A stretch of DNA of 18,106 bases from a virus: UHGV virus genome UHGV-0176695; one strand, 5' to 3'. Of this stretch, positions 10,719-15,807 are shown in pieces. The notes under the pieces were generated by a model that saw nothing but the letters and a program-made list of their open reading frames with translations, was not told the origin of the DNA and did no database searches. The position numbers and the translations under genes were made by a program. The stretch's first letter is position 1. Each line of letters starts with the position of its first letter.

Positions 10719-10793
<75 letters not shown>

Positions 10794-10796
10794 ATA

Positions 10797-10872
<76 letters not shown>

Positions 10873-14757: not shown

Positions 14758-15030
14758 TTACCTCCAGATGCGTTGCTGGAATGTGCGGGACGGACGCGGT
14801 GGGCGTTCGGAGTAAGGGAGCCTGACGTAGATTATCCAGTGACGATAATCGAGGCTGAGGGCTTTCTTAAACTCATACCCACGTCTGCGGTAGTTATGAA
14901 TCAGCCATTCGGCCTGTTCTTCAGTGCAGGGGTCATGCTGGTACCAGTCATATTTGAATGTATGAGAACGCCGCCCGTGCCTGCTGGCAAGGTCGGTATC
15001 AGAATTGTGATGTTTGGTATTGTGCGCCAT
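14758..15030 (-). CDS. Hypothetical protein (about 90 aa)
   Basis: Track ORF 14758..15156 trimmed to ATG 15030 because the N-terminal extension overlaps the terminator at 15101-15124; weak ribosome-binding site; basic and His-rich. Start and reality uncertain. Confidence 0.35.
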   Translation of the reverse strand: MAHNTKHHNSDTDLASRHGRRSHTFKYDWYQHDPCTEEQAEWLIHNYRRRGYEFKKALSLDYRHWIIYVRLPYSERPPRPSRTFQQRIWR

Positions 15031-15100
15031 CGGTTTTCTCTGCTGGCGCAGCAGGTGCCAGTTGTTCAGGCTGGCCTGTGGATTGTAAACCAGAATACGT

Positions 15101-15124
15101 AAAACAAAAAACCCGCCGAAGCGG
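15101..15124 (-). terminator. Intrinsic terminator downstream of hok
   Basis: Minus-strand hairpin CCCGC-TTCG-GCGGG (plus 15111-15124) followed by TTTTTTGTTT (plus 15101-15110), about 70 nt after the hok stop. Confidence 0.6.
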
Positions 15125-15196
15125 GTTAAGCGCGGGTGCGTTGAGGATGCCGACACATCAGAGGTGGCGGGAGATTACTCTCCCGCCTGGTCACTC

Positions 15197-15352
15197 TTAC
15201 TTCTCAGATTCGTAGTCCACGAAGACAACAACCTCCGTCTGGCCGGTTCGGATTCGTACCTCGCAGAGGTCTTTCCTCGTTACCAGTGCCGTCACTATGA
15301 CGGTTAAACAGATGACGATCAGGGCGATTAACATCGCCTTTTGCTGCTTCAT
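15197..15352 (-). CDS. hok: Hok/Gef-family type I toxin (small membrane-depolarising peptide)
   Basis: 51-aa ORF translated by hand: MKQQKAMLIALIVICLTVIVTALVTRKDLCEVRIRTGQTEVVVFVDYESEK. ATG at 15352 with an AAGGAG ribosome-binding site 9 nt upstream. Near-identical to E. coli Hok proteins from memory. It is missing from the ORF track because it is under 60 aa. Confidence 0.85.
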   Translation of the reverse strand: MKQQKAMLIALIVICLTVIVTALVTRKDLCEVRIRTGQTEVVVFVDYESEK

Positions 15353-15560
15353 AGCCTGCTTCTCCTTGACCTTTCGGTCCGTAAGAGGCTAACCTATGTT
15401 TGTGTGGCATAGATTGGGCCTCAGATTAATGTTAAGCGTCCTGCAAGACGCGTAATGTTAACTGGGGCTTTTCTCTGTCTGCCTTACAGTGGCATGCCCG
15501 AGGCAGACAGCCTCAAGCACCCGCAGCAATCTTACCGACACCGATAAGAAAACGCTATTT
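15353..15560. promoter_or_regulatory. Structured hok leader with a mok-equivalent frame and candidate Sok antisense region
   Basis: The frame upstream of and in-frame with hok reads PLTDRKVKEKQAM, matching the Mok N-terminal region from memory, but is closed by TAG three codons further upstream. Plus-strand candidate antisense promoter: TTGACC at 15366-15371 and TAACCT at 15390-15395. Hairpins at 15436-15451 and a 9-bp inverted repeat CTGTCTGCC/GGCAGACAG at 15475-15510. Confidence 0.35.
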
Positions 15561-15807
15561 TTTATTGCCAGCACCATCTATCCAGGCTAATTTATCTGCG
15601 TCAGAACGGCGCAATGCGCTCGCCTGAGATACGTTTACTTGCCATGGTAACAACAGGTAACGGCAATTGTTGTTTCTGTTTTGTTTCCTTCAAAAACCCC
15701 GGACCATCAATCCGGGGTTTTTGTTTGTTATCCCCAGCGGCAAATCGAATACACCACCAGCGCCACCGCCATTGCAATTCCTACCGTTGTGAACGCTTCA
15801 GACCAGG

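Follow-up and report, generated by a model that had tools for sequence, protein, structure and literature searches.

A probable complete hok/sok module with an out-of-frame mok leader in a lambda-like prophage

The window analysed here, the whole 18,106-nucleotide (nt) stretch of UHGV virus genome UHGV-0176695, is a lambdoid prophage read on the minus strand, and it carries a hok toxin gene in its nin region. The hok gene (15197..15352, minus strand) encodes a protein of 51 amino acids (aa) of the HokD/HokW type, MKQQKAMLIALIVICLTVIVTALVTRKDLCEVRIRTGQTEVVVFVDYESEK, as translated in the list of open reading frames (ORFs). In a profile search, this protein matched the Pfam family HOK_GEF (PF01848) with 75.7 bits at a cut-off of 22. 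Its score against the NCBIfam subfamily NF007279 was 51.4 bits, under the cut-off of 73, and HokD is the name carried by members of its 90%-identity cluster. A Shine-Dalgarno (SD) sequence, AAGGAG (15362-15367, minus strand), is located 9 nt before the hok ATG, and on the opposite strand it overlaps the -35 element of the candidate Sok promoter. An earlier note made from the letters of the DNA (hereafter the sequence-only reading) had described a hok-type toxin locus in a prophage with a structured leader, a candidate antisense RNA on the plus strand and an intact 51-aa Hok ORF with a good ribosome-binding site; this description holds. It had further proposed that the mok leader frame is interrupted and that the toxin is perhaps silent, differently regulated or decaying. 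Our analysis indicates instead that a lambda-like prophage here very probably carries a hok/sok toxin–antisense-RNA module that is ordinary and complete, with mok intact and in the +1 register relative to hok.

The ORF list contains a 68-codon ORF (15204..15410, minus strand) that starts from a conserved SD and ATG and runs in +1 relative to hok. From its ATG (15410) down to that of hok the distance is 58 nt, and the last base of its TGA precedes that of the hok stop codon by 7 nt. The mok SD, GAGG (15419..15422, minus strand), precedes this ATG by 8 nt; GAGGC is invariant in 84/84 aligned relatives, and in the alignment the SD and ATG of the window fall in the columns that hold the mok start in 933W, Rac, K-12 hokC and the R1-type locus. 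The TAG from which the interruption had been deduced does exist. It occupies 15389..15391 on the minus strand, 39 nt upstream of hok, with no ATG, GTG or TTG between it and the hok ATG, and the upstream translation in the hok frame is a stop followed by PLTDRKVKEKQAM, that is, TAG-PLTDRKVKEKQA-M. This TAG is a stop in the hok frame only, and the mok frame reads these bases within the codons TTA GCC. Alignment with the R1 and chromosomal hok loci, which the sequence-only reading had proposed as a check, places an intact mok start in another register, the very finding that it had named as contradicting its claim. Judged by this alignment, mok only looks interrupted when the wrong register is expected; the sequence-only reading had assumed that mok invariably shares the frame of hok, which is how K-12 mokC and 933W mokW are annotated.

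In 933W mokW (70 aa), in the mok of an E. coli A8 prophage (70 aa), in K-12 mokC (69 aa) and in the mok of pMTY1886_IncFII, which has an R1-identical Hok (71 aa), the mok ATG is 57 nt from the hok ATG and in frame with it. The distance is 58 nt and the register +1 in the annotated mok of phage Rac (MN652886; 68 aa), in the R1-type parB mok (70 aa) and in the window (68 aa). The R1-type reference was a 433-nt sequence present with 100% identity in many IncF plasmids, for example p1658/97. Its +1 product matched the NCBIfam equivalog model NF010277, 'modulator of post-segregation killing protein', with 151.6 bits and Pfam DUF5431 with 140 bits, and the names attached to it include 'FlmC homolog' (FLMC2_ECOLX). 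Because the R1-type +1 product is a curated Mok, the register of the window is that of the reference system; with the 58-nt, +1 layout being the R1-type layout, the proposal of a silent, differently regulated or decaying toxin is not supported.

Compared with 933W, the window has one additional base, an extra T just before the hok SD (GGTCAAGG vs GGCAAGG). K-12 hokC shares the extra T and has a compensating 1-base deletion upstream (AGAGT-GCC vs AGGTTAGCC). The Mok sequence that the sequence-only reading had used for comparison, PLTDRKVKEKRAM, was found by sequence comparison to be a genuine K-12 MokC sequence, and PLTDRKVKEK(R/Q)AM is common to K-12 hokC/mokC/sokC (gef) and the window when the latter is read in the hok frame. 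The upstream deletion by which hokC compensates the extra T explains why the window can resemble MokC in the hok frame while its own ATG lies in another frame.

The survey of the register drew on viral contigs and on one genome per species; the 121 related loci collected there gave 84 unique sequences of leader plus coding sequence (CDS). The 57-nt register, with an in-frame ORF giving an N-extended Hok, was found in 56/84 unique loci, and the 58-nt register, with a +1 frame of 55-70 codons, in 13, the window being in this class. Nine loci have a 56-nt register, in which a 19-codon ORF ends with a TGA overlapping the hok ATG as cUAUGA. A 48-nt register was assigned to one locus (L127), whose hok begins at an upstream in-frame ATG (MLAMKQQ), so that the distance is counted from a different start. 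Five loci have no ATG at the mok position, the leader being lost or the start mutated: unrelated sequence replaces the leader in L097 (which resembles K-12 hokD), L039, L114 and the second locus of L124, and the mok ATG is mutated to ACG in L022. These are useful negative examples, that is, hok loci truly without a mok start. The register has changed repeatedly, because single-base indels at two or more sites occur in several combinations, and different combinations can yield one register.

The leader of hok matched the Rfam model RF01794 with 109.4 bits (E = 1.7e-24, gathering score 59) over model positions 1-157/157. The match spans 173 nt (15350-15522, minus strand) and covers the hok-upstream leader together with the start codon; despite its label 'sok', the model represents the hok-sense strand, with the hok AUG as its end. 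The putative full-length hok mRNA (15106..15522, minus strand) is about 417 nt long, its 5' end being set by RF01794 model position 1 and the conserved GGGTGCTTGAGG, and its 3' end by an intrinsic terminator (15106..15127, minus strand) with a 7-bp stem containing five G-C pairs and a 4-nt loop at 15110-15127, followed by a T-run. The predicted minimum free energy (MFE) of this mRNA is -174.7 kcal/mol, with z = -8.46; the Rfam score and this fold both place the region well outside chance expectation. The 5'-end element GGGUGCUUGAGG (15511..15522, minus strand), the 'tac' side of the fold-back, is complementary to the 3' fold-back element (fbi) CCUCAACGCACCC (15134..15146, minus strand) over 12 bp with one bulged C, and the helix between them is present in both the MFE and centroid folds. 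Among the 84 relatives, 91-94% of the cells of this helix are paired vs 39-54% when the partner columns are slid, and covariation is seen as a switch from U-A to C-G in 14 of the 84 sequences.

Both leader structures reported by the sequence-only reading were recovered. Its inverted repeat has arms in 15464-15484 and 15501-15521 with 16 nt between them and a perfect core of 10 bp (15475-15484/15501-15510), and corresponds to the first leader stem-loop (15475..15510, minus strand), with a 10-bp stem CUGUCUGCCU/AGGCAGACAG and a 16-nt loop. In the 84-relative alignment, 94% of the cells of this stem are paired and four pairs are changed on both sides. Its second hairpin (15436..15451, minus strand) was seen in the folds as the 5-bp GCGUC/GACGC pairing of GCGUC-UUGCAG-GACGC, which on the plus strand forms the apex of the Sok terminator hairpin. 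According to the alignment, this hairpin lies in an insertion of about 18-20 nt that belongs to the phage hokD/hokW clade, is not present in hokC, the R1-type locus or the Photorhabdus loci, and lengthens the apex of the Sok terminator hairpin. Closer to hok, an anti-SD element CCUCU (15383..15387, minus strand) lies in the GCCTCTTAC block, which is nearly invariant across the 84 relatives. In folds of the 3'-truncated mRNA, the 5' end refolds locally and this CCUCU pairs with the AGGAG of hok. Such predicted masking of the hok SD in the truncated fold fits a hok gene that would need ribosomes coming from mok.

A candidate -10 element of the hok promoter, TAAGAT (15529..15534, minus strand), is situated 7 nt upstream of the putative 5' end of the mRNA, and its counterpart in the alignment is TAGAAT in 933W and Rac and TATAAT in K-12 hokC; no good -35 element accompanies it. 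A weak hok promoter fits reports for R1 hok. About 170 nt upstream of the hok mRNA start, there is also a 13-bp palindromic hairpin flanked by an A-run and a T-run (15691-15723; CAAAAACCCCGGA...TCCGGGGTTTTTG). It looks like a bidirectional terminator and could insulate the weak hok promoter from upstream read-through in the nin region.

The putative Sok antisense RNA is encoded on the plus strand (15402..15472) and would be about 71 nt long. Its 5' end was placed by homology: the GenBank entries for sokW of 933W and for K-12 sokC start 8 nt inside mok, and the homologous base of the window is 15402. In its predicted structure, 14 single-stranded nt at the 5' end are complementary to the mok start region and precede a long hairpin and UUUU; the fold energy is -28 to -35 kcal/mol (z = -5.97). 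A candidate Sok promoter (15366..15395, plus strand) consists of a -35 element TTGACC (15366-15371), an 18-nt spacer and a -10 element TAACCT (15390-15395), whose bases are identical in 933W. Support for the plus-strand antisense promoter suggested by the sequence-only reading is weak: the candidate sits at a position homologous to the annotated sokW and sokC starts but fails a strict consensus scan. In the hokW-sokW system, mutation of the sokW promoter abolished antitoxin activity and SokW RNA was detected by northern blot (PMC8621323).

Several points weigh against the reading of an intact +1 mok within a complete module. hokW, the nearest experimentally studied relative, uses the 57-nt in-frame register and not +1. 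The 68-aa product of the window scored 11.9 bits against DUF5431 (E = 0.27, cut-off 27) and had no NCBIfam match. The openness of the +1 frame across hok was not remarkable, with P = 0.085 by synonymous-codon resampling and P = 0.36 when the gene's own codons were permuted, and 57-nt relatives within the clade have this frame open as well. Truncating the mRNA at its 3' end left the predicted accessibility of the mok start as it was in the full-length fold. A strict sigma-70 consensus scan returned 0 sites, passing neither the hok nor the Sok promoter, so both promoter calls are based on homology, and the antisense promoter does not hold as a consensus match. Finally, the register of R1 was assigned from the 433-nt sequence, taken here as R1's own parB although the searches established only its 100% identity in IncF plasmids, together with the curated family names; a literature text search for a stated length of Mok gave irrelevant papers only.

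Two candidate arguments were rejected on these results. The 68-aa product is not counted as a Mok/FlmC-family protein, being below the Pfam threshold and absent in NCBIfam; against the R1-type product it shows 30% collinear identity over 60 aa (E = 0.019). Selection on the +1 ORF was likewise rejected, given the resampling P values and the open frame in the 57-nt relatives, and for the same reasons ORF length alone proves nothing. Since the length and family tests of the +1 frame failed, the argument is built on the conserved start site and the reference systems and not on the ORF. The non-significant length and the family non-match fit a leader ORF whose product does not matter. The window product is a positional and functional equivalent of Mok that falls outside the Mok/FlmC protein family.

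The same facts can be read another way. If the functional mok of this clade were the in-frame one, a 1-nt insertion would have broken it in the window, hok would not be translationally activated, and the module would be silent or decaying. The real in-frame TAG agrees with this, as do the 57-nt in-frame register in 56/84 unique relatives including the validated hokW, a +1 ORF not significantly longer than chance allows and a +1 product matching no Mok family. However, an intact SD and ATG occupy the conserved position, ribosomes initiating at that ATG would cross the SD/AUG region of hok in any frame, and the R1-type locus, the reference plasmid-stabilisation system, has exactly this +1 register. 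The 58-nt and 56-nt registers arise by different indel combinations in several lineages, always with an intact hok; in the window the Hok ORF, fold-back, Sok hairpin and terminator are all intact, and true leader losses, as in L097, L039, L114 and the second locus of L124, look quite different. We therefore consider a broken mok very improbable. The intact +1 mok remains the preferred reading: the locus belongs to an established type of system, and the sequence criteria that could be tested show it complete.

How such a module would act was deduced from the literature on R1 hok/sok and hokW-sokW. In R1, translation of mok is reported to be required for translation of hok, and the mechanism consists of mok-coupled translation, blocking of mok by Sok and 3' processing of the mRNA (reviews PMC4147584, PMC1635323). 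The window locus most likely works, by homology, like the R1 and hokW systems. The 5'-3' fold-back would lock the full-length mRNA in an inert state until slow 3' trimming allows it to refold. The single-stranded 5' tail of Sok would then bind the translation-initiation region of mok, resulting in a block of mok translation and in cleavage by RNase III. When the unstable Sok is lost, through loss of the prophage or through induction as shown for sokW, ribosomes would start at mok, and their transit would melt the hairpin that hides the AAGGAG of hok behind the invariant CCUCU. Hok would then be made and the inner membrane depolarised. In this scheme the amino-acid sequence of Mok would be irrelevant and ribosome passage alone would matter, which is why the mok register could differ between relatives.

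A different possibility is that mok is dispensable, Hok being translated directly from its own strong AAGGAG and Sok acting mainly through cleavage or decay of the mRNA. The hok SD is near-consensus and 9 nt from the ATG, its mean unpaired probability in the full-length fold is about 0.6, and RNase III and Hfq contribute to hokW antitoxin activity (PMC8621323). On the other hand, the putative Sok (15402-15472) overlaps the start of mok, whereas the hok start is at least 35 nt away; the mok SD and ATG are kept in 78/84 unique relatives; the fold of the truncated mRNA has the hok SD paired with the conserved CCUCU; hok of R1 is reported to require mok translation (PMC4147584, PMC1635323); and the hokW paper does not regard RNase III and Hfq as the major route (PMC8621323). 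A dispensable mok is likewise considered very improbable, and a mok-coupled hok is retained.

Among known systems, the closest is hokW-mokW-sokW of the Stx2 phage 933W and Sakai prophage Sp5 (AF125520; Takada et al. 2021, PMC8621323), with about 92% DNA identity to the window locus. The Hok proteins differ in one residue, A42 in HokW of 933W and V42 in the window. The two loci, both on lambdoid prophages, have the leader, the bases of the candidate Sok -10 element, the clade-specific hairpin and the fold-back element in common. In 933W, however, mok lies at 57 nt, in frame, and gives a 70-aa N-extended Hok, whereas the 68-aa mok of the window lies at 58 nt in +1. The candidate Sok -35 element is TTGCCT with a 17-nt spacer in 933W and TTGACC with an 18-nt spacer in the window, a difference due to the same extra T before the hok SD. 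The 933W locus is near the right end of its genome record (58.4-58.8 kb of 61.7 kb), while that of the window belongs to the nin region and precedes DUF968, RusA and Q. HokW is toxic and is neutralised by SokW expressed from its own promoter, and both hokW and SokW RNAs were present in lysogens on northern blots. Upon RecA-dependent induction, SokW disappears and HokW accumulates, and phage yield halves without the hokW-sokW locus (PMC8621323).

The IncF R1-type hok/mok/sok (parB) has the same architecture as the window, with the mok ATG 58 nt upstream in +1, a mok ORF whose end precedes that of the hok stop codon by 4-7 nt in the two loci, a common 5'-3' fold-back logic with covarying bases, and the putative Sok promoter and start at homologous positions. 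In contrast, Hok is strongly diverged from the R1 type (HokW and R1 Hok share 44% identity; PMC8621323), the R1-type locus is plasmid-borne and that of the window prophage-borne, the leader hairpins differ in length, and the Mok product of the window, unlike the R1-type one, is no recognisable member of the Mok/FlmC family. K-12 hokC/mokC/sokC is of the same family and has the same leader elements. In hokC the +1 frame closes after 11 nt of hok, mok is at 57 nt, in frame and 69 aa long, the clade-specific hairpin insertion is missing, and the K-12 copy is flanked by IS186. Chromosomal hok loci have been reported not to mediate post-segregational killing (bioRxiv 10.1101/2025.08.07.668861). The hokD (relF) gene of the K-12 Qin prophage encodes nearly the same toxin as the window and is also prophage-borne, but in the K-12-type hokD locus, for which L097 stands here, the mok/sok leader is gone and the upstream sequence is unrelated, with no GAGGC and ATG, whereas the window keeps a complete leader.

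The genes around the locus are arranged in the order DUF551-type gene, hok, DUF968, RusA, Q, two tRNAs, lysis genes, terminase, portal and ClpP/capsid fusion. The adjacent tRNA genes, Thr(TGT) and Gly(TCC), are at 10719-10872 on the minus strand and, by the gene order of relatives, lie between the Q-antiterminator region and the lysis genes. A mechanically called 132-aa ORF (14758-15156, minus strand) overlaps the hok terminator and is probably over-extended; its annotated homologue in E. coli A8 measures about 90 aa (273 nt) and begins beyond the terminator. The exact 51-aa Hok was also found on a 243-kb assembly contig (L135, ENA ERZ1034980 NODE_16) in another neighbourhood, with a Fic-domain gene about 400 nt downstream of the Hok that is identical to that of the window. 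Within hok, the Tyr47 codon and the next base (15211-15214, minus strand) read UACG, which is invariant in 84/84 aligned relatives. We take UACG to be the recognition motif of TadA, a site that the window allele would retain. A-to-I recoding of Tyr to Cys by TadA has been described in hokB and similarly in hokC, hokD and hokE (bioRxiv 10.1101/2025.08.07.668861).

As a discovery, the locus has little weight: hok/sok is widespread in lambdoid prophages, DNA similar to the locus occurs in 4715/5426 complete E. coli genomes, at roughly 10,600 places, and the nearest relative, hokW-sokW, has been experimentally characterised. The useful outcome is a correction. Public mok annotations are inconsistent across registers, in frame for K-12 mokC and 933W mokW and +1 for R1-type Mok/FlmC and Rac mok, and mok is usually left unannotated by PGAP. 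Expecting one register leads to loci of another register being wrongly called broken. In two IncF plasmids (L005 558-659; L006 407-532), the RefSeq/PGAP hok CDS are N-terminally truncated, 102-126 nt vs 159 nt, and mok is unannotated; these plasmids have an identical Hok and a different mok register, 57 nt vs 58 nt. A simple rule locates mok as GAGGC and ATG placed 56-58 nt upstream of the hok ATG, and the survey illustrates the appearance of hok loci from which the leader has truly been lost. Only the polymorphism of mok across three registers is mildly new; a recent Hok survey explicitly left Mok unresolved (bioRxiv 10.1101/2025.08.07.668861). It is conceivable, if rather doubtful, that the three registers are not equivalent, and that in-frame read-through, ribosome transit and termination-reinitiation could set different Hok outputs. 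If so, register switching would be an evolutionary tuning knob for toxin strength in prophages.

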